Origin: a virus
Taxonomy: Duplodnaviria; Heunggongvirae; Uroviricota; Caudoviricetes
Direction: 5' to 3' (one strand)
IMG/VR virus record: IMGVR_UViG_2711768053_000020
Span: 1 to 45,210 of that record
DNA length: 45,210 nt
Part shown: one piece after another, positions 1 through 41,215 of the stretch
Position numbering within the stretch: the first letter of the stretch is position 1
How the letters are laid out: every line of letters begins with the position of its first letter
The notes under the pieces: model-generated
What the model was told of the DNA's origin: nothing
Databases searched by the model: none
What the model saw: the letters and a program-made list of their open reading frames with translations, nothing else
Program-made: the position numbers and the translations under genes

Positions 1-834
1 ATGTCATCTTCCATCAAACAACAGATTAGAGATCGCAGCGAGTACATTGGTTTTATCGAAAAATGTTTTGCAAATGCGCATCAATGCTACGTTGTCCATT
101 ATTCATGTGAATCTTTTTATGATGCTGTGGGCGGTAAATCCACAAGGATCACCTCTATTGCTGTCAGAAATTTAGGCAGTGGGCAAACAGATCATTGGGC
201 TCTTAATAGATCCGCAGAATTATTAGGTCTTGATGTTTCAGATGAAAAAAATCTCGATATCCTTGAGCATCATCTATTAGATAACTACTTTACATTCCTG
301 AAAAGATACGCACAATGCACATTTCTGCATTGGAACATGCGAGATAACAATTACGGATTTCAGGCCTTACAGCATAGATTTTCAGTCCTAGGTGGCGAGC
401 CCTTTATACTTACTGATGACAGAAAACTCGATTTAGCGAGAGCTGCCGTTTCTATATATGGACGAAGCTATATTGGGCATACCGCCAAAAGTGGCCGTGC
501 AGGTAGAATGTTAGCTCTTGTTGAAAAAAATGGTATCGCTGATAAAGATGTCTTAGCCGGCGCTGAGGAAGCCGAGGCATATGTCAAAGGTAAGTATAGA
601 GAGCTAGAAATGTCTACATTACGAAAGGTCGACATACTCTGTAATATTGCTGAGCGGATTCATGATCGTACTCTCAAAACTAACAATAAATGGTTTTGGC
701 CAAGAAGCTGGCATCCATATTGGTTAACGATGAGGCTCAAAGAACACCCATTAGTGACTGGATTAATAGTTTTAGGGATTTTCTTAGGTGTAATTACCAA
801 AGGTCTAGATCTATATGCTTGGTGGCAGCAGTAA
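1..834 (+). CDS. hypothetical protein (277 aa) with C-terminal hydrophobic segment
   Basis: ATG at window position 1 and an uninterrupted 277-codon ORF; C-terminal LVTGLIVLGIFLGVITKGL looks like a TM helix. No family recognised by eye. Confidence 0.45.
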   Translation: MSSSIKQQIRDRSEYIGFIEKCFANAHQCYVVHYSCESFYDAVGGKSTRITSIAVRNLGSGQTDHWALNRSAELLGLDVSDEKNLDILEHHLLDNYFTFLKRYAQCTFLHWNMRDNNYGFQALQHRFSVLGGEPFILTDDRKLDLARAAVSIYGRSYIGHTAKSGRAGRMLALVEKNGIADKDVLAGAEEAEAYVKGKYRELEMSTLRKVDILCNIAERIHDRTLKTNNKWFWPRSWHPYWLTMRLKEHPLVTGLIVLGIFLGVITKGLDLYAWWQQ

Positions 835-1046
835 AATGGGGTGTCAGGTCTTTATCGGGACACTGATACGGGGAAAGTTACAATACTGAGGCTGGTTCAC
901 GCTCAGAGCGTCAAAATTGTCCGTCACAGACTCGTCGCATCTGCACTTAATCCATATGACACGGATTGGACAGATTATATCCGATCCCGAACCACGCGTC
1001 TGACTGCACCTGCCGCATCATTTCACAGTGGTGTTTGATAAGGCTT

Positions 1047-1122
1047 GAGCCGTGTGAGCTGGAAACTCTCACGCACGGTTCTTAGAGGGGGCGTTGAAGG
1101 TAACTTCGGTGCCCTACTCGAC
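1047..1122 (+). mobile_element. group II intron 3' remnant (domain V plus domain VI-like hairpin with bulged A)
   Basis: GAGCCGTGTGAG...CTCACGCACGGTTC matches the conserved domain V consensus (GAGCCGUAUG...ACGUACGGUUC) at almost all invariant positions. It is followed by a GC-rich hairpin with an unpaired A near its 3' side. No intact reverse-transcriptase ORF lies upstream. Confidence 0.5.
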
Positions 1123-1170
1123 AAGACCGAAGATAGCAAAAAAACAACCCTACTTCATTCACCGAACTGA

Positions 1171-1476
1171 TGGGTAGCCAATATTCATGGCGGCAATCGG
1201 CAGCGCCCCTTCGAACGTAGTGACGAGGCCGAAGGTTTTTTAATAGTGACGTCTGCGGCCGATGAAGGCTTGGTTGATATACACGACCGACAGCCACTTG
1301 TATTGTCACCGGAGGCAGCCCGGGAATGGGATGCGCCAAGACGCCGAGGCAAGGAAGCAGAAGCGATTACCGACTACGGTGCCGTGCAAGCTGACAAGTT
1401 TATCTGGCATGCAGTTACGCGAGCGATGGGTAATGCGAAAAATCAAGGTGAATATCTTATTGTTTCAATTGAATAA
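1171..1476 (+). pseudogene. SRAP (YedK-like SOS-response-associated peptidase) 3' fragment
   Basis: Frame encodes ...GLVDIHDRQPLVLSPEAAREW..., resembling the C-terminal IHDRMPVIL region of SRAP/YedK proteins. The frame opens only after a stop at 1168-1170 and the N-terminal catalytic part is absent. Confidence 0.45.
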
Positions 1477-1553
1477 TAATGTTTTTACCTCAAATTAGCA
1501 TTATACTATTTCATGCTTTATTTACACCTCTTTAAATTAGGATAACAATTATA

Positions 1554-3302
1554 ATGGAAAACTCTAATAGCAATTTGATTGTAAAAATAGTTCATCTTCT
1601 ACAATCCGAAAGAGATGGACTTATTTTTATTGATGGAAAATGGGGAACAGGTAAAACTTTTTTTATTAAAAATGTATTTCCTCGTTTTTATGATCTTAAT
1701 GTGTTTTATTATATTTCATTACTAGGCGTTAAGTCTCTTGCAGATTTCAAAGCAAAGATTATTGACTGCTACTATCTTCAAGATATAGACACTCTTAAGT
1801 CTGGGTTAGATACTATTTCTGGTTTGGGTAGTGTAAGCAGTGGTTCTCCCGCTAGTGCCAATGTGCTTAATGGTGTGTTCAGTTCCATTGGTTCAAGTGT
1901 AAGAGAGAACATACTCTCCAAACTCAGTGGCATATTTATATTAGATGACATTGAGCGATTAAGCACTCCCTCACTGGCCAATGAAATACTAACTTATTGT
2001 CATTCGTTATATTCAACCTCAAAAATCTCTAGTTTGGATTTTATTGTTATATCTAATACATCTGCCGAATCCCACCTGTCATTAGAACATAAAGAAAAAA
2101 TTATTTCTGATTCACTTCATTACAACCCAAACCCTCGCGACATATTAGATATGAGAATAATTGAAGAAAAACTACAGTACTTCCCCACTGAAGACAAAAT
2201 GATTTTCGAAGAAATAATATCATACCATAACATAGTTAACATAAGAATTTTAATGAGGTGTTTAAATACTGCACTTCCATTATATTTACACGCAGAAAAC
2301 CACCCTGAACTAGAGTGGAAAATCGCCTCTAAAACCATACTAAGCTCAATTTTGTCATATTTTATCTTGTTATTTATCCATAACAAATCCATGGACGAAC
2401 TGATCATTGACAGCATCCAGCATATCCCACCCCAAAATTCCAGCAGCGATGAAAATCCACATGAACCGAGACTTTTGTCTACATTACACAATTATAAAAT
2501 TAATATTCACCTTAAAAATTACTACAGTGGTCATGTTTCTCTTTATGATATATTGGACGATGTTTTTTATGTGCCAACACCTTTAAGTACAATTGATATT
2601 ACAGTTTCAACTCGACCAGAACTACAGGAGACAGATGAAAAAGAATTTTTCCCCACGATTATTGGTTTAATTTCTAGAACAATACCATGTGATTTGCACC
2701 AATGGCTTAGGGCGGTTCAGAACTATGAATATTTGACTTATCATAAATATCTTCCAAAATCATCATTACTAACATTGCAGTTCATGAGTTCTAAATCACT
2801 CGAATTTAGTGACGAGGACATTATTACTTACTTTGAATTTCATAACAACAATCCAATCAGTAGTTGGACTAGTGGCTTTGATGATGGGAAACTTATATTT
2901 TCAATATTATCAGGCCGTCATAATAATATTGAAAAGAGAAAAAACTTAAAGGCAATTAAGGAAATTATTGAAACTGATGGTTGGGCTTTATTTGATGTTA
3001 ACTTATTACTCAAATTAGATCCCATGGGAAACTATAAAACGCTAGAAGTACTTGGCGCACCATTTTTGACCAAGTGCATTTTAAAAGAATGGAGCATTAA
3101 AGATATAGAGCAATTCAACGCTTTTTTAAGAAGTAATTATAGAATTAGTAACATATCTCAGTTTGCCACAAATGAAAAGCAGCGCCTTATATACCTCAAT
3201 CAAAAACTTGACATTTATTTCATAGGTAAGCAAGAAAGTTTTAAATATGGCGCGATATATGATTTAAACAATACAGTAAGACACGCAATTTCTTGCCTAT
3301 AA
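1554..3302 (+). CDS. KAP-family P-loop NTPase (582 aa)
   Basis: Long ORF in visibly AT-rich DNA; N-terminal Walker A within IDGKWGTGKTFF, the GxWGxGKT form typical of KAP NTPases. Confidence 0.75.
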   Translation: MENSNSNLIVKIVHLLQSERDGLIFIDGKWGTGKTFFIKNVFPRFYDLNVFYYISLLGVKSLADFKAKIIDCYYLQDIDTLKSGLDTISGLGSVSSGSPASANVLNGVFSSIGSSVRENILSKLSGIFILDDIERLSTPSLANEILTYCHSLYSTSKISSLDFIVISNTSAESHLSLEHKEKIISDSLHYNPNPRDILDMRIIEEKLQYFPTEDKMIFEEIISYHNIVNIRILMRCLNTALPLYLHAENHPELEWKIASKTILSSILSYFILLFIHNKSMDELIIDSIQHIPPQNSSSDENPHEPRLLSTLHNYKINIHLKNYYSGHVSLYDILDDVFYVPTPLSTIDITVSTRPELQETDEKEFFPTIIGLISRTIPCDLHQWLRAVQNYEYLTYHKYLPKSSLLTLQFMSSKSLEFSDEDIITYFEFHNNNPISSWTSGFDDGKLIFSILSGRHNNIEKRKNLKAIKEIIETDGWALFDVNLLLKLDPMGNYKTLEVLGAPFLTKCILKEWSIKDIEQFNAFLRSNYRISNISQFATNEKQRLIYLNQKLDIYFIGKQESFKYGAIYDLNNTVRHAISCL

Positions 3303-3310
3303 ATTGGCAT

Positions 3311-3347
3311 ACTAAGTCTCAGCCGAATTGTATAACTGAGACTTAGT
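3311..3347. terminator. perfect 12-bp inverted repeat (ACTAAGTCTCAG / CTGAGACTTAGT) between convergent genes
   Basis: Stem-loop with a 13-nt loop located 9 nt after the KAP NTPase stop and upstream of the umuC 3' end; no clean U-tract on either strand. Confidence 0.3.
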
Positions 3348-3425
3348 AATCAAAAATAAGAACATTTGATTTATCGTTTCTAATAAACTCATCCACCGTT
3401 TTCCGAAGAATCTGTCACCGGAAAA

Positions 3426-4700
3426 TCACCTGACAACGGGTAGATCAGAGAATCGGGTGGTGTAACGTGGAGAAAGCATTTCCCGTTTCATCTGCCACTG
3501 CTGCTGGATACCCTGTCCTGCAAAATACAGCGTCCCCCTCCCGCCTTTGGCATTGAGGTGATCCAGCACTTCCATCAGTTTCTCACTGCCCGGGCGCGGC
3601 GCGTTATCATCGAACAAGTTGAGCTGGGCCACGCCCTGACTGAAGAAATCACCCAACATCACCCCGGCTTTCTGATACCGATATCCGTCTTGCCATATGG
3701 CGTCCAGACAGCGGATGGCTGCACTGATGATATCCCGACTGTCCTGCGTAGGCGTCAGAAGCTTCACGGAGGCATTATTGCCATAATAGGGCTCGTTCAG
3801 TGCGAACGGGCTGGTCTTCACAAACGCCGAGATAAAACGGCAATACTGGTGCTCGCCACGCAGTTTCTCTGCCGCCCGCGAGGCATAGCTGCAGATCGCC
3901 TGGCGCATCTCTTCATACTCCGTGATACGACCGCTAAAAGAGCGGGAACAGATAATTTCCTGTTTCACTGGCGCGAATTCTTCCAGTGCCAGGCAGGGTT
4001 CTCCGCGTAACTCACGCACCGTTCGCTCCAGCACGACATTAAAATGTTTACGGATAAAACGGATGTCCGTATCAGCGAGTTGCAGTACGGTCTTGATCCC
4101 CATCGCCTCCAGTTTTTTCGAAATACGCCGACCGATGCCCCAGACTTCATCAACCGGCAGCGCGGCCATCAGTTTGCGCTGGCGATCGACACTGGACAGG
4201 TCTACCACCCCGCCCGTCTGCCGCTGCCATTGTTTGGCCGCGTGGTTGGCCAGCTTGGCCAGCGTCTTGGTCTGGGCAATGCCAACACCCACTGTCAGAT
4301 GCGTTCGCTGCAGAACAGTAGCACGGATTTCACGGCCAAAATCAGTCAGATCACGACAGTTACGTACACCAGTGAGGTCACAAAATGCCTCGTCTATCGA
4401 GTAAATTTCACAGCGCGGCGACATTTCTTCCAGCGTGGTCATCACCCGGTTAGACATATCCGCATACAGCTCATAGTTGCTGCTGAAGCACACCACCCCA
4501 TGGCGCCGGAAAAAGTCCTTCTGCCTGAAGTACGGCTCACCCATTTTGATACCCAGTTTCTTTGCCTCTGTGCTGCGGGCAATAACACAACCGTCATTGT
4601 TGGAAAGCACCACAACCGGCCTACCTTTGAGATCCGGGCGAAATACAGTTTCACAGGAGGCATAGAACGAGTTCACATCACACAACGCGTACATGATCAA
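3426..4700 (-). CDS. umuC: DNA polymerase V catalytic subunit UmuC (Y-family polymerase)
   Basis: 424 aa; N-terminus [20 protein letters not shown]...[15 protein letters not shown] and colinear similarity along the whole length to enterobacterial UmuC; start overlaps the umuD stop (ATGA). Confidence 0.95.
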
Positions 4701-5119
4701 CCCGTCGATTTCACGATGAACGTCACCACACCAAAAACATCGAGCGTTTCTTCGCTCCCGATGATGATAGGCGACCAGGCGCGGTTTTCAGGGTTAAGCT
4801 GGACAGTTGGCCATAACTGTAGGCGCTTAACGGTAAATTCCCCGTCCACCGCAGCAATAACGATATCGCCGTGCTCTGCCTTGCGTGAACTGTCCACTAC
4901 CAGTAAATCGCCTTCGCCGATCCCGGCATCAATCATCGAGTCACCAGATGCCTTAACGAAGTACGTGGCGCTGGGGTGTTGTATCAGTAGCTCGTTAAGA
5001 TCGATACGCTGTTCAACGTAGTCCTGAGCAGGGCTTGGGAAACCACAGGGTACAAGATCGCCATAGAGTGGAAGCGGCTGCACTGCACGCAACCCGGAGG
5101 GAGTGAAAAACTGCATCAT
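4697..5119 (-). CDS. umuD: UmuD (LexA-like self-cleaving SOS mutagenesis protein)
   Basis: Contains [18 protein letters not shown] and [17 protein letters not shown]...[17 protein letters not shown] motifs of UmuD. The track ORF begins at a TTG (5131); the tandem ATG ATG at 5114-5119 is the more likely start. Confidence 0.9.
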
Positions 5120-5135
5120 AATCACCGTCAATTAA

Positions 5136-5155
5136 TACTGATATTATATACAGTA
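5136..5155 (-). promoter_or_regulatory. LexA (SOS) box upstream of umuD
   Basis: TACTGATATTATATACAGTA has the CTG-N10-CAG SOS-box architecture and sits about 17 bp upstream of the umuD start. Confidence 0.8.
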
Positions 5156-5223
5156 GTTTTTATTTAAACGGAGATCAATGGCATTAGCCACCATCAGTCA
5201 TCATCGTCGCATAACTCAATGAT

Positions 5224-5775
5224 TTACCTGGTTGCCGGAAATTTTTTATATAGCGTCGATATCCCAACATCGTAAATTAATGCCACACGCTGTCGTGATT
5301 CACCTGCTGCAACCAACCTTCCTGCCTGCGCCCACTGTTCATCAGTTAGCTTTGATCGACGCCCACCTATTCGCCCTTCTTCACGAGCCGCAGCCAATCC
5401 CGCCCTGGTACGTTCGACTATCAGCTCCCTTTCCATTTCGGCAAGTGCGCCCATGACATGGAAGAAAAAGCGTCCCATTGGTGAAGACGTATCTATGCTG
5501 TCGGTCAGGCTGCGAAAGTTAATACCCTTTTCCCGAAGCTCCTCCACCAAAACGACAAGATGCCGCATGCTGCGACCGAGTCGATCCAGTTTCCAGACCA
5601 CCAGCGTGTCACCTGCCGATAATGTCCTGAGCAGCTTTTTCAGTCCTGGTCTGTCGGACTTTGTACCGCTTATCTTGTCTTCAAAAATCAGCTCACATCC
5701 TGCACAGTTCAGCGCATTACGTTGTAGATCTGTGTTCTGGTCATTTGTTGACACACGTACATAGCCAATAAGCAT
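5224..5775 (-). CDS. serine recombinase, DNA invertase of the Pin/Gin/Hin/Cin family
   Basis: MLIGYVRVSTNDQNTDLQRNAL N-terminus with catalytic Ser, VVWKLDRLGRS and SPMGRFFFHVMGALAEMERELIVERT motifs, C-terminal HTH; likely start is the internal Met (MLIGYV). Confidence 0.9.
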   Translation of the reverse strand: MLIGYVRVSTNDQNTDLQRNALNCAGCELIFEDKISGTKSDRPGLKKLLRTLSAGDTLVVWKLDRLGRSMRHLVVLVEELREKGINFRSLTDSIDTSSPMGRFFFHVMGALAEMERELIVERTRAGLAAAREEGRIGGRRSKLTDEQWAQAGRLVAAGESRQRVALIYDVGISTLYKKFPATR

Positions 5776-39784: not shown

Positions 39785-39820
39785 ATTCGGACACGGGTTC
39801 AACTCCCGCCAGCTCCACCA
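39785..39820 (+). other. ssrA: tmRNA (ssrA) / tRNA-like 3'-end fragment ending in CCA; probable att remnant
   Basis: ATTCGGACACGGGTTCAACTCCCGCCAGCTCCACCA has T-arm, acceptor 3' strand and CCA, and from memory matches the 3' terminus of enterobacterial ssrA with one mismatch; no 5' portion of the RNA gene is present upstream. Confidence 0.55.
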
Positions 39821-39985
39821 CTTTTTAGTTGTTTGAAGTTCAATGAAGTCTACTAAGCCCACACAGCACAAGCTCTGCGGGCTTTTTTACGTCTATTGTC
39901 GTCCAGTGAGAATTGCTGAGAACTACGAGTTATGGCACCCTGAATGGGACCCATTAAGAAGGGTCCAAAAACCGAGGGTCCCAAA

Positions 39986-41215
39986 ATGGCAAAAATCGCT
40001 AAGAAGCTCACTGACACTGAAATCAAAAGCACCAAGCCAGCCGATAAAGAAATCAACTTGTTTGACGGTGATGGTCTGATTCTACGAATCGCTCCTTTGG
40101 CGAAAGGAGGCAAGAAAAATTGGTATTTCAGGTATGCAGTACCAGTGAGCAAGAAAAGAACCAAAATGAGCCTTGGGACATATCCTCACCTTACCCTTGC
40201 AAGAGCCAGAGCCTTACGTGATGAATATCTCTCCTTTCTGGCAAATGGTGTTGATCCCCAAATCCATAACAACGATAAGGCGAAGGCATTAAAGAGTGCT
40301 ACTGAGCACACTCTCCAAGCCGTAGCGCGGAAATGGTTAGATGAGAAGGTAAAGACATCAGGTATCTCACAAGACCATGCAGCAGACATCTGGCGCAGCT
40401 TAGAGAGAAATGTCTTTCCCGGTCTGGGTAATGTCCCTATCAATGAGATCCGACCTAAGCTCTTAAAACAACACCTTGATCCTATTGAGCAACGAGGCGT
40501 ATTGGAAACTCTACGCCGTATCATTTCACGTCTGAATGAAATCTTCCGGTGGGCAGCTACTGAAGAACTTATTGAGTTCAACCCGGCTGACAACCTTGGT
40601 CAAAGATTCAGTAAACCAAAAAAGCAAAATATGCCTGCCCTTCCCCCAAGCGAATTGCCAAGGTTTATGGAATCTTTGACGAATGCGTCAATCCGGTTGG
40701 AAACACGTATGCTAATTGAATGGCAATTGTTGACATGGGTTCGTCCGGGTGAAGCCGTTCGCGCAAGGTGGTCTGATATTGATACAACCAACAGCATTTG
40801 GAACATTCCTGCTGATTTCATGAAAATGAAAAAGCTTCACAAAGTTCCTTTGAGTAAAGAAGCTTTGCGCATCCTTGAATTAATGAAATCAATAAGTGGG
40901 CATAGAGAATGGGTTTTCCCCAGCATAAAAGCGCCTCTTAATCATATGCATGAACAAACAGCCAACGCAGCTATCATCCGAATGGGGTTCGGAGGCGAGC
41001 TTGTAGCTCACGGTATGCGTTCTATTGCACGAACAGCGGCAGAGGAGTCTGGTAAATTCAGAGCTGAAGTTCTTGAGGCAGCGCTTGCCCACTCGAAAAA
41101 AGATGAAATTATCGCAGCATACAATCGTGCAGAATATCTGATAGAGCGACAGAGTTTGATGCAATGGTGGAGTGATTACGTTCAAGCTCAAAGATCAAAT
41201 GCTCTGGTAGCCTAA
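39986..41215 (+). CDS. P4-type tyrosine integrase
   Basis: N-terminal MAKIAKKLTDTEIKSTKPADKEINLFDGDGLILRIAP...NWYFRY is the characteristic P4-integrase N-terminus; C-terminal ...AHGMRSIARTAAEESG...AALAHSKKDEIIAAYNRAEY catalytic region; directly downstream of the tmRNA-like fragment. Confidence 0.9.
   Translation: MAKIAKKLTDTEIKSTKPADKEINLFDGDGLILRIAPLAKGGKKNWYFRYAVPVSKKRTKMSLGTYPHLTLARARALRDEYLSFLANGVDPQIHNNDKAKALKSATEHTLQAVARKWLDEKVKTSGISQDHAADIWRSLERNVFPGLGNVPINEIRPKLLKQHLDPIEQRGVLETLRRIISRLNEIFRWAATEELIEFNPADNLGQRFSKPKKQNMPALPPSELPRFMESLTNASIRLETRMLIEWQLLTWVRPGEAVRARWSDIDTTNSIWNIPADFMKMKKLHKVPLSKEALRILELMKSISGHREWVFPSIKAPLNHMHEQTANAAIIRMGFGGELVAHGMRSIARTAAEESGKFRAEVLEAALAHSKKDEIIAAYNRAEYLIERQSLMQWWSDYVQAQRSNALVA

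Follow-up and report, generated by a model that had tools for sequence, protein, structure and literature searches.

The occurrence, in a 45,210-nt stretch of DNA (hereafter, the window), of a group II intron 3' end next to an incomplete DNA-repair gene of the SRAP (YedK) type raises the question of whether the two are traces of separate events or parts of the same one. The original prediction regarded the locus as a scar of successive insertions. We found instead that full-length relatives of the intron fill the same site in otherwise intact SRAP genes, which indicates that the stub and the SRAP fragment form one unit, the latter being the intron's own 3' exon from the 1122/1123 junction onward. 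Our reading, to which we assign a probability of roughly 0.88, is that ~843..1476 represents the defunct right-hand portion of an accessory SRAP gene that an intron had interrupted, and is a non-functional scar.

The intron 3' end was recognized in an Rfam scan, in which RF00029 (Intron_gpII, domains V-VI) matched 1045..1122 on the plus strand over the complete model (1-77 of 77) with 53.6 bits (E = 7.2e-08; gathering score, 40). This is the sole above-threshold Rfam match in the whole 45 kb window, and its score rules out chance similarity as the origin of the match. Folding of 1040..1125 yielded 2 hairpins with a minimum free energy of -35.8 kcal/mol and a z-score of -3.2. The first corresponds to domain V (1047..1080, plus strand; Rfam, fold), a 34-nt catalytic hairpin with the AGC triad at 1048-1050 and a 2-nt bulge, and the second to domain VI (1085..1119, plus strand; Rfam alignment, fold), with a single bulged branch-point A at 1116, 6 nt upstream of the intron end at 1122. 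Both hallmarks of a group II intron are thus present at 1047..1119, and the intron 3' end with domains V and VI that had been predicted from the letters of the window is borne out by the covariance match and the two-hairpin fold with its bulged A. The former 3' splice junction (1122..1123, plus strand) separates an intron ending in ...CUACUCGAC from an exon starting with AAG, the 3' flank reading AAG ACC GAA GAT.. from 1123, and the same junction is found in the Klebsiella variicola plasmid pBM374-1 (L001), the IMG/VR contig L036, and Enterobacter bugandensis (L039).

Intron homology reaches upstream of 1047, to ~843-847 and possibly to 837, as determined by BLAST and local alignments to full-length relatives. 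It is unbroken from 847 onward in alignments to the introns in L001 and L038/L039 (both from E. bugandensis), and TCAG at 843-846 may be intron sequence too, with a 2-nt deletion. Together with the BLAST limits, these alignments place the breakpoint, at which the upstream gene (stop codon 832-834) gives way to the intron remnant, within 835..846 on the plus strand. Hence, 276-286 nt of the ~2169-nt intron are kept, that is, its last ~13%. This portion includes the tail of the intron-encoded protein gene (841..1038, plus strand), namely the last 65 codons, C-terminal to the maturase/X domain, the product of which shares 77% identity with residues 433-497 of the intron protein of K. variicola, which is 497 aa long (E = 8e-35). 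Pfam detected no domain in this open reading frame (ORF), neither RVT_1 nor GIIM. The original statement that no reverse transcriptase is evident upstream therefore holds for the reverse transcriptase domains but not for the end of the protein, which is present. Ribozyme domains I-III with the exon-binding sites and the reverse transcriptase/maturase ORF are absent from the locus, in agreement with the proposed decay or 5' truncation of the intron; the window has no Rfam match to D1-D4, the K. variicola plasmid copy giving RF02012 at 104.9 bits. The 5' exon is also absent and 1..834 is an unrelated gene, so that there is no continuous exon-joined gene. The rest of the intron or of the SRAP gene was not found elsewhere in the window by Rfam or by homology to L036.

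From 1123 to 1476 (plus strand), the window carries a SRAP (YedK-type) 3' exon pseudogene corresponding to residues ~107-222, as delineated by Pfam, alignment to the L036 exon, and RefSeq. The ORF 1246..1473 matches Pfam PF02586 (SRAP) at profile positions 152-213 of 214 with 31.4 bits (E = 1.7e-07; cut-off, that is, gathering score, 27.1 bits), and 1123..1476 is ~75-76% identical at the DNA level to the second exon of the intact intron-containing SRAP gene in L036. These 2 results exclude chance similarity as the origin of the SRAP frame, which had been named as a possible objection. The predicted SRAP fragment without its catalytic N-terminus is accordingly genuine, but it amounts to about the C-terminal half of the protein rather than a third. 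Like intact SRAP/YedK genes, the remnant matches the PF02586 profile and lies beside a umuDC-like pair, as in E. coli XJ55 and on plasmid pSB89A. Unlike them, it lacks residues 1 to ~106, including the catalytic Cys2 (MCGR..), and its reading frame is not intact. Compared with the L036 exon, it bears a +1 frameshift at ~1133, an in-frame TAG at 1174-1176, a -1 frameshift at ~1205, and a +1/-1 pair at 1328/1341; RefSeq, too, calls it a pseudogene that is frameshifted, has an internal stop, and misses its N-terminus.

What the locus has lost can be read from intact relatives of ~2169 nt, which split SRAP genes precisely behind the W codon of a conserved ..DG(F/W)(Y/F)EW motif. The intact intron of pBM374-1 (3108..5276) contains the RF02012 D1-D4 match and encodes a 497-aa protein with RVT_N, RVT_1, and GIIM domains. 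It is flanked by ..YAPGWWDKAPLINARMETAASSRMFKPLWQHGRALCFADGWFEW on the 5' side and KKEGDKKQPYF.. on the 3' side, representing a SRAP gene split after the W codon (..GWFEW). In L036, a 2169-nt intron lies inside an intact SRAP gene, the exons of which, when joined in silico, give a 225-aa frame starting with MCGRF and yielding a single Pfam SRAP match (1-213 of 214, E = 2e-51). Further full-length introns in SRAP with the same junction are present in Erwinia, Pantoea, and E. bugandensis (L039).

To these can be added 26 loci containing the 35-nt domain V word, which were retrieved in a scan of one genome per species and which form, with the window and 2 plasmid copies (L001 and L004), the basis of the flank counts. 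A SRAP-like 3' flank (..K(Q/K)P(Y/F/H)..FAGLW..) follows the intron in 24 of the 27 assessable copies, the exceptions being L007, L024, and L030. All 15 assessable 5' flanks stop at the SRAP motif ..(C)(L/I)(I/V)PA.G(F/Y/W)(Y/F)EW, immediately before GUGCGAC, with ..EW as the ending in 14 of them and ..YER in the decayed copy L027. Joining the exons in silico produced intact SRAP frames of ~225-280 aa in 7 copies (L008, L012, L016, L018, L022, L029, and L036); Pfam analysis of 4 of these joined frames gave a single full-length SRAP match in each case, and exon continuity is found in the relatives L036, L008, L016, and L022. The hosts include Acidobacteriota metagenome-assembled genomes (MAGs), Halomonas, Janthinobacterium, Erwinia, and Scandinavium, as well as a Nitrospira MAG, whose short contig leaves the flanks not assessable; the Klebsiella, Pantoea, and Enterobacter copies stem from searches other than the domain V scan. 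Copies retrieved by their intron protein, without recourse to the domain V word, again lie in SRAP (L040 and L041), and SRAP ORFs lie downstream of the intron encoding a 66% identical protein (P0012) and on both flanks of that encoding a 61% identical one (P0046). As judged from these sequences, an endonuclease-less, provisionally chloroplast-like group II intron lineage keeps to a single position in the SRAP genes of Acidobacteriota, Halomonas, Janthinobacterium, and Enterobacterales, and splicing and mobility are predicted for this lineage. The uninterrupted form of the site is widespread: at least 4265 E. coli genomes have a single BLAST piece crossing the junction, and the site in yedK is empty in nearly all E. 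coli. The intact target gene and the intact intron, for which a search had been suggested, thus both exist in relatives (L001, L036, and L039), but no full-length intron copy was found among 5426 complete E. coli genomes.

Several members depart from the common form. Scandinavium sp. (L027 2877..3628) carries a 752-nt intron derivative without the protein gene at the same SRAP site, the flanking SRAP gene being decayed, with ..YER replacing ..YEW and its 3' exon containing an early stop. In 3 Acidobacteriota MAGs (L012, L025, and L029), the otherwise full-length intron starts with UCGCGAC rather than the near-invariant GUGCGAC, and 2 of these introns are still inside SRAP genes with intact joined exons. 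The E. bugandensis chromosome harbors a full-length copy of the window's intron variant outside SRAP (L038 3410..5579), at the 3' end of a rhodanese-domain gene whose last stretch, ..VYDGGWYEW (GGCTGGTACGAATGG), mimics the SRAP target; this insertion is apparently ectopic and may hint at the nucleotides that are recognized.

The protein of the full-length relatives has its best PDB match in 6me0 chain C ("Maturase reverse transcriptase"; 531 bits, E = 2.8e-158, residues 12-490), which we take to be the Thermosynechococcus T.el4h ribonucleoprotein. The DIII-DIV region is ~72% identical at the DNA level to an ltrA-carrying intron on plasmids of O157:H7 strains, such as EDL933; we infer that this plasmid is pO157 and the intron E.c.I5. 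Both E.c.I5 and Th.e.I1 have been classed as CL1A (chloroplast-like class 1A; PMC3552965), and on this best-hit evidence the full-length relatives are provisionally assigned to chloroplast-like class 1 / IIB1. They share with introns of this class, such as E.c.I5 and T.el4h, the 5' GUGCGAC, a canonical domain V, and a branch A located 7 nt from the 3' end. They differ from chloroplast-like class 1 introns in that their 497-aa protein lacks an HNH endonuclease domain; homologues of the protein at ~59% identity and below mostly possess HNH (PF01844). By analogy with other introns that lack an endonuclease, the SRAP lineage would retrohome from replication-fork primers. Domain I contains a conserved CCAUUC, a candidate EBS1 with complementarity to the exon end GA(G/A)UGG and with 2 candidate positions in some copies; no convincing EBS2 candidate was found in the full-length relatives. 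With respect to E.c.I5, the homing site of which is described as unknown (PMC3522654), the SRAP lineage differs in homing inside SRAP genes, and the window differs further in its reduction to the intron's 3'-terminal ~13%.

A parallel to the arrangement of the intact relatives concerns residence in a gene. Ll.LtrB is a group II intron that resides in the relaxase gene ltrB, a conserved protein-coding gene, and, as in that case, the intact relatives interrupt a functional gene at a conserved motif, with removal of the intron restoring the frame. Unlike Ll.LtrB, they target a SRAP/YedK-type gene, and the same site is filled across distant phyla.

The window corresponds to the E. coli chromosome directly downstream of ssrA, being identical to strain SZQ1 and 99.8% identical to CP55_Sichuan, and its arrangement is found in 3 of 5426 complete E. 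coli genomes as well as in one gut metagenome contig and one IMG/VR contig. The last 35 nt of ssrA are repeated directly at 39786..39820 (34/35 identical), and tail, head, terminase, repressor, and integrase genes are located between ssrA and this repeat. Based on the repeat and the enclosed phage genes, the locus can be placed at the prophage's accessory end, with the attachment site on one side and the tail-fiber invertase on the other. A second, P4-type integrase is encoded right after the repeat (39944..41215), which, together with the repeat, suggests a second element in tandem at ssrA.

The intron remnant is preceded by an intact, conserved hypothetical gene for a protein of 277 aa (1..834, plus strand), the stop codon of which lies within ~10 nt of the intron breakpoint. 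The protein has no Pfam or PADLOC match; its homologues, at 41-47% identity, are plasmid-encoded in Bacillus, Legionella, Calothrix, Agrobacterium, and Robbsia, among others. Truncation or fusion of the gene was excluded, since the similarity to the plasmid homologues of the first 4 genera extends over residues 1 to ~265 of the 277. On the other side, between the SRAP remnant and umuDC, lies a gene for a KAP-family P-loop NTPase of 582 aa (1554..3302), which matches the PADLOC candidate defense family PDC-S49 (E = 8e-14). It is followed, on the minus strand, by genes for a UmuC-like Y-family polymerase (3426..4700; Pfam IMS and IMS_C) and a UmuD-like S24 peptidase (4697..5131; Pfam Peptidase_S24). 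This pair (3426..5131) lies outside the intron and represents the partner genes of the accessory SRAP-umuDC module that carried it. SRAP/YedK genes are often linked to SOS mutagenesis genes, and in the few copies with surroundings examined, SRAP lies beside mutagenesis genes of the umuDC or dnaE2 type. A SRAP-umuDC module with an uninterrupted SRAP, ~74% identical, occupies another chromosomal site in E. coli XJ55 (L037), and one with the full-length intron is found in E. bugandensis (L039), where it adjoins a gene encoding a domain of the phage tail-spike type (Peptidase_S74). In a metagenomic relative (L041 1..2646), the intron-bearing SRAP directly follows a gene for a DnaE2-like polymerase (PHP and DNA_pol3_alpha domains).

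A second remnant of the window's intron variant is located on plasmid pSB89A (L004 4994..5277), ~2 kb downstream of 3 to 4 tandem tyrosine-recombinase genes resembling a "recombinase in trio" (L004 47..2922). The intron parts of the 2 remnants are 96.4% identical (266/276 positions), whereas the SRAP exons share only 62.5% identity and the upstream flanks are unrelated. Identity that falls so sharply right where intron and exon meet is expected from independent homing into 2 SRAP alleles. The pSB89A exon is in frame, and downstream of it lie a LexA-box-like sequence and umuDC. E. bugandensis has this variant in full length, in 2 copies that are identical over 2169 nt and match the pSB89A remnant at 100% over 284 nt. 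Mapped onto the L038 reference, the breakpoint of pSB89A falls at 5296 (ATTCAGCGG..) and that of the window at 5298-5303, that is, 2-7 nt apart. If breaks were uniform over ~2170 nt, a coincidence of this kind would be expected in well under 1% of cases; thus, 2 independent truncations so close together are not expected by chance, and random later deletion does not predict them. A shared upstream flank was rejected, the proteins being unrelated and the flanks showing no DNA similarity. A search for the "empty site" of the pSB89A upstream flank was equally unproductive, its sole other match, on an E. cloacae plasmid, diverging after 206 nt into an unrelated context. No plasmid, E. coli genome, viral contig, or metagenome searched yielded a further remnant with the same cut: a variant-specific 29-mer recovered only copies of the window's island in metagenome and viral scans, a plasmid search for distant matches returned only K. 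variicola, Pantoea, and pSB89A, and a protein search with the 65-aa tail gave no match. Other truncated copies of the lineage end elsewhere, with ~670 nt kept in L010 and ~1250 nt in L028.

The near-coincidence of the cuts has to be weighed against our reading, because it could mean that the stub was truncated at birth. In such an abortive retrohoming, the intron RNA would be cut, for example by RNase E at AU↓AUU in ..GGAUAUUCAGCGG.., the reverse transcriptase would run off ~280 nt in, and repair would join the short cDNA to resected upstream DNA, thereby deleting the SRAP 5' exon. Cuts 2-7 nt apart in SRAP alleles as divergent as 62.5% identity, behind unrelated upstream flanks, speak for this scenario, as does the co-orientation of the upstream gene with the intron in both loci. 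Furthermore, AUUCAG forms the exact start of the pSB89A remnant, in keeping with the RNase E consensus, RN↓WUU, which ~1/64 positions match by chance. RNase E is reported to hinder retrohoming through the degradation of intron RNA, and extracts contain incomplete cDNAs (PMC3636086), which is compatible with the proposed steps. Nevertheless, the pattern consists of 2 cases, to which plasmids, E. coli genomes, viral contigs, and metagenomes added no more examples; L010 and L028 break elsewhere; and no SRAP 5' exon or microhomology is visible in the alignments at either junction, in the window or in pSB89A. Truncation at birth is, in our estimate, unlikely. The stricter claim that the stub is the product of a recurrent, site-specific retrohoming failure, with an RNase E-like cut in domain IV (AU↓AUU), a ~280-nt cDNA, and destruction of the SRAP target, we consider quite unlikely; if it were true, a host RNase would convert an insertion that is silent and can be spliced out into a scar that kills its gene, with a predictable breakpoint.

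The position of the break can also be read in another way. Natural organellar trans-spliced group II introns are split in domain IV, where the break falls here too, and the stub might then be the 3' half of a split intron whose 5' half, comprising SRAP exon 1 and domains I-III, is encoded elsewhere. The intact frame of the pSB89A 3' exon would suit such an arrangement, but the exon in the window is frameshifted and contains a stop codon, and sister strains carry an IS element within domain V. Moreover, a query composed of the SRAP 5' exon and domains I-III detected no 5' half in complete E. coli genomes, the best intron matches (72% identity, 36% of the query) being to a different intron. When the first part of the intron-protein gene was added to the query for plasmids, none of the matches listed was to pSB89A, and at least 80% of the query was covered in only 2 of the plasmids among them, neither being pSB89A. 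We therefore regard trans-splicing as extremely improbable. A role for the stub as a co-opted RNA element, which might serve 1..834 as a 3' stabilizer or terminator or else regulate the NTPase gene downstream, is suggested by the 2 stable hairpins that immediately follow an intact gene's stop codon. It appears very unlikely, given that 700..1700 contains no terminator-like site and promoter-like sites only at background level, that the insertion in domain V is tolerated in related strains, and that no more than 3 of 5426 complete E. coli genomes have the arrangement.

We thus favor the reading of ~843..1476 as the remains of an intron-interrupted gene, and propose the following history, the order of events being inferred. 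As suggested by the relatives, a mobile, ~2169-nt chloroplast-like/IIB intron encoding a 497-aa reverse transcriptase/maturase without an endonuclease domain would have retrohomed into its lineage-specific site in SRAP, directly after the W codon. The interrupted gene would have been part of a SRAP-umuDC cargo module at the accessory end of the prophage at ssrA. A later rearrangement would have cut away the SRAP 5' exon (~318 nt) together with the first ~1.9 kb of the intron, that is, domains I-III and nearly all of the protein gene, and fused the leftover to the end of the unrelated intact gene 1..834; the fused structure is directly visible, the event itself being deduced. The SRAP exon would have acquired its frameshifts and stop codon afterwards, as a neutral scar. 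One intron insertion and one later event suffice to explain both truncations, that of the intron 5' part and that of the SRAP 5' part. An ancestral intact version of the window's own allele was not found.

With no ribozyme core, no reverse transcriptase, no Cys2, and a broken exon, the stub cannot splice, move, or make SRAP. Its dispensability follows from the tolerance of an IS3-family element inside domain V in sister strains: the element splits the domain at ~1074-1079 in strain Res13-Sevr-PER07-33 (L003 4775..6000), and the same insertion is present in an IMG/VR contig of the same island (L033 1080..2305). No function is expected of the feature in the window, which is best annotated as a pseudogene or scar.

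The stub itself is ordinary, fragments of group II introns being common in mobile elements of Enterobacterales (PMC3522654). The survey of this order by Leclercq and Cordaux (2012) reported 111 intron fragments, which represent 55 distinct copies, the fragments residing mostly in mobile elements and being mostly distant from described active introns (PMC3522654). The window's stub resembles these fragments in its location, in the accessory region of a prophage, and in its rarity (3 of 5426 E. coli genomes). It differs from them in that its host gene and homing site can be reconstructed and that a 96.4%-identical full-length copy exists in E. bugandensis. In the literature accessible to our search, which is incomplete, no paper linking group II introns to SRAP, YedK, DUF159, or COG2135 was found, the SRAP/umuC hits having been judged irrelevant by title or abstract, and the SRAP-specific intron lineage is probably undescribed.

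The wider value of the stub lies in what it points to, namely, an endonuclease-less intron lineage at a single conserved site in SRAP (YedK-type) genes. In bacteria, group II introns mostly reside in mobile DNA or behind terminators, so that a lineage tied to one conserved site within a protein-coding gene in different phyla offers a natural system for studying target recognition, intron-host coexistence, and horizontal spread. The empty yedK site in nearly all E. coli and the lack of a full-length copy in 5426 genomes fit the picture of selection-driven extinction that has been drawn for the introns of Enterobacterales (PMC3522654).
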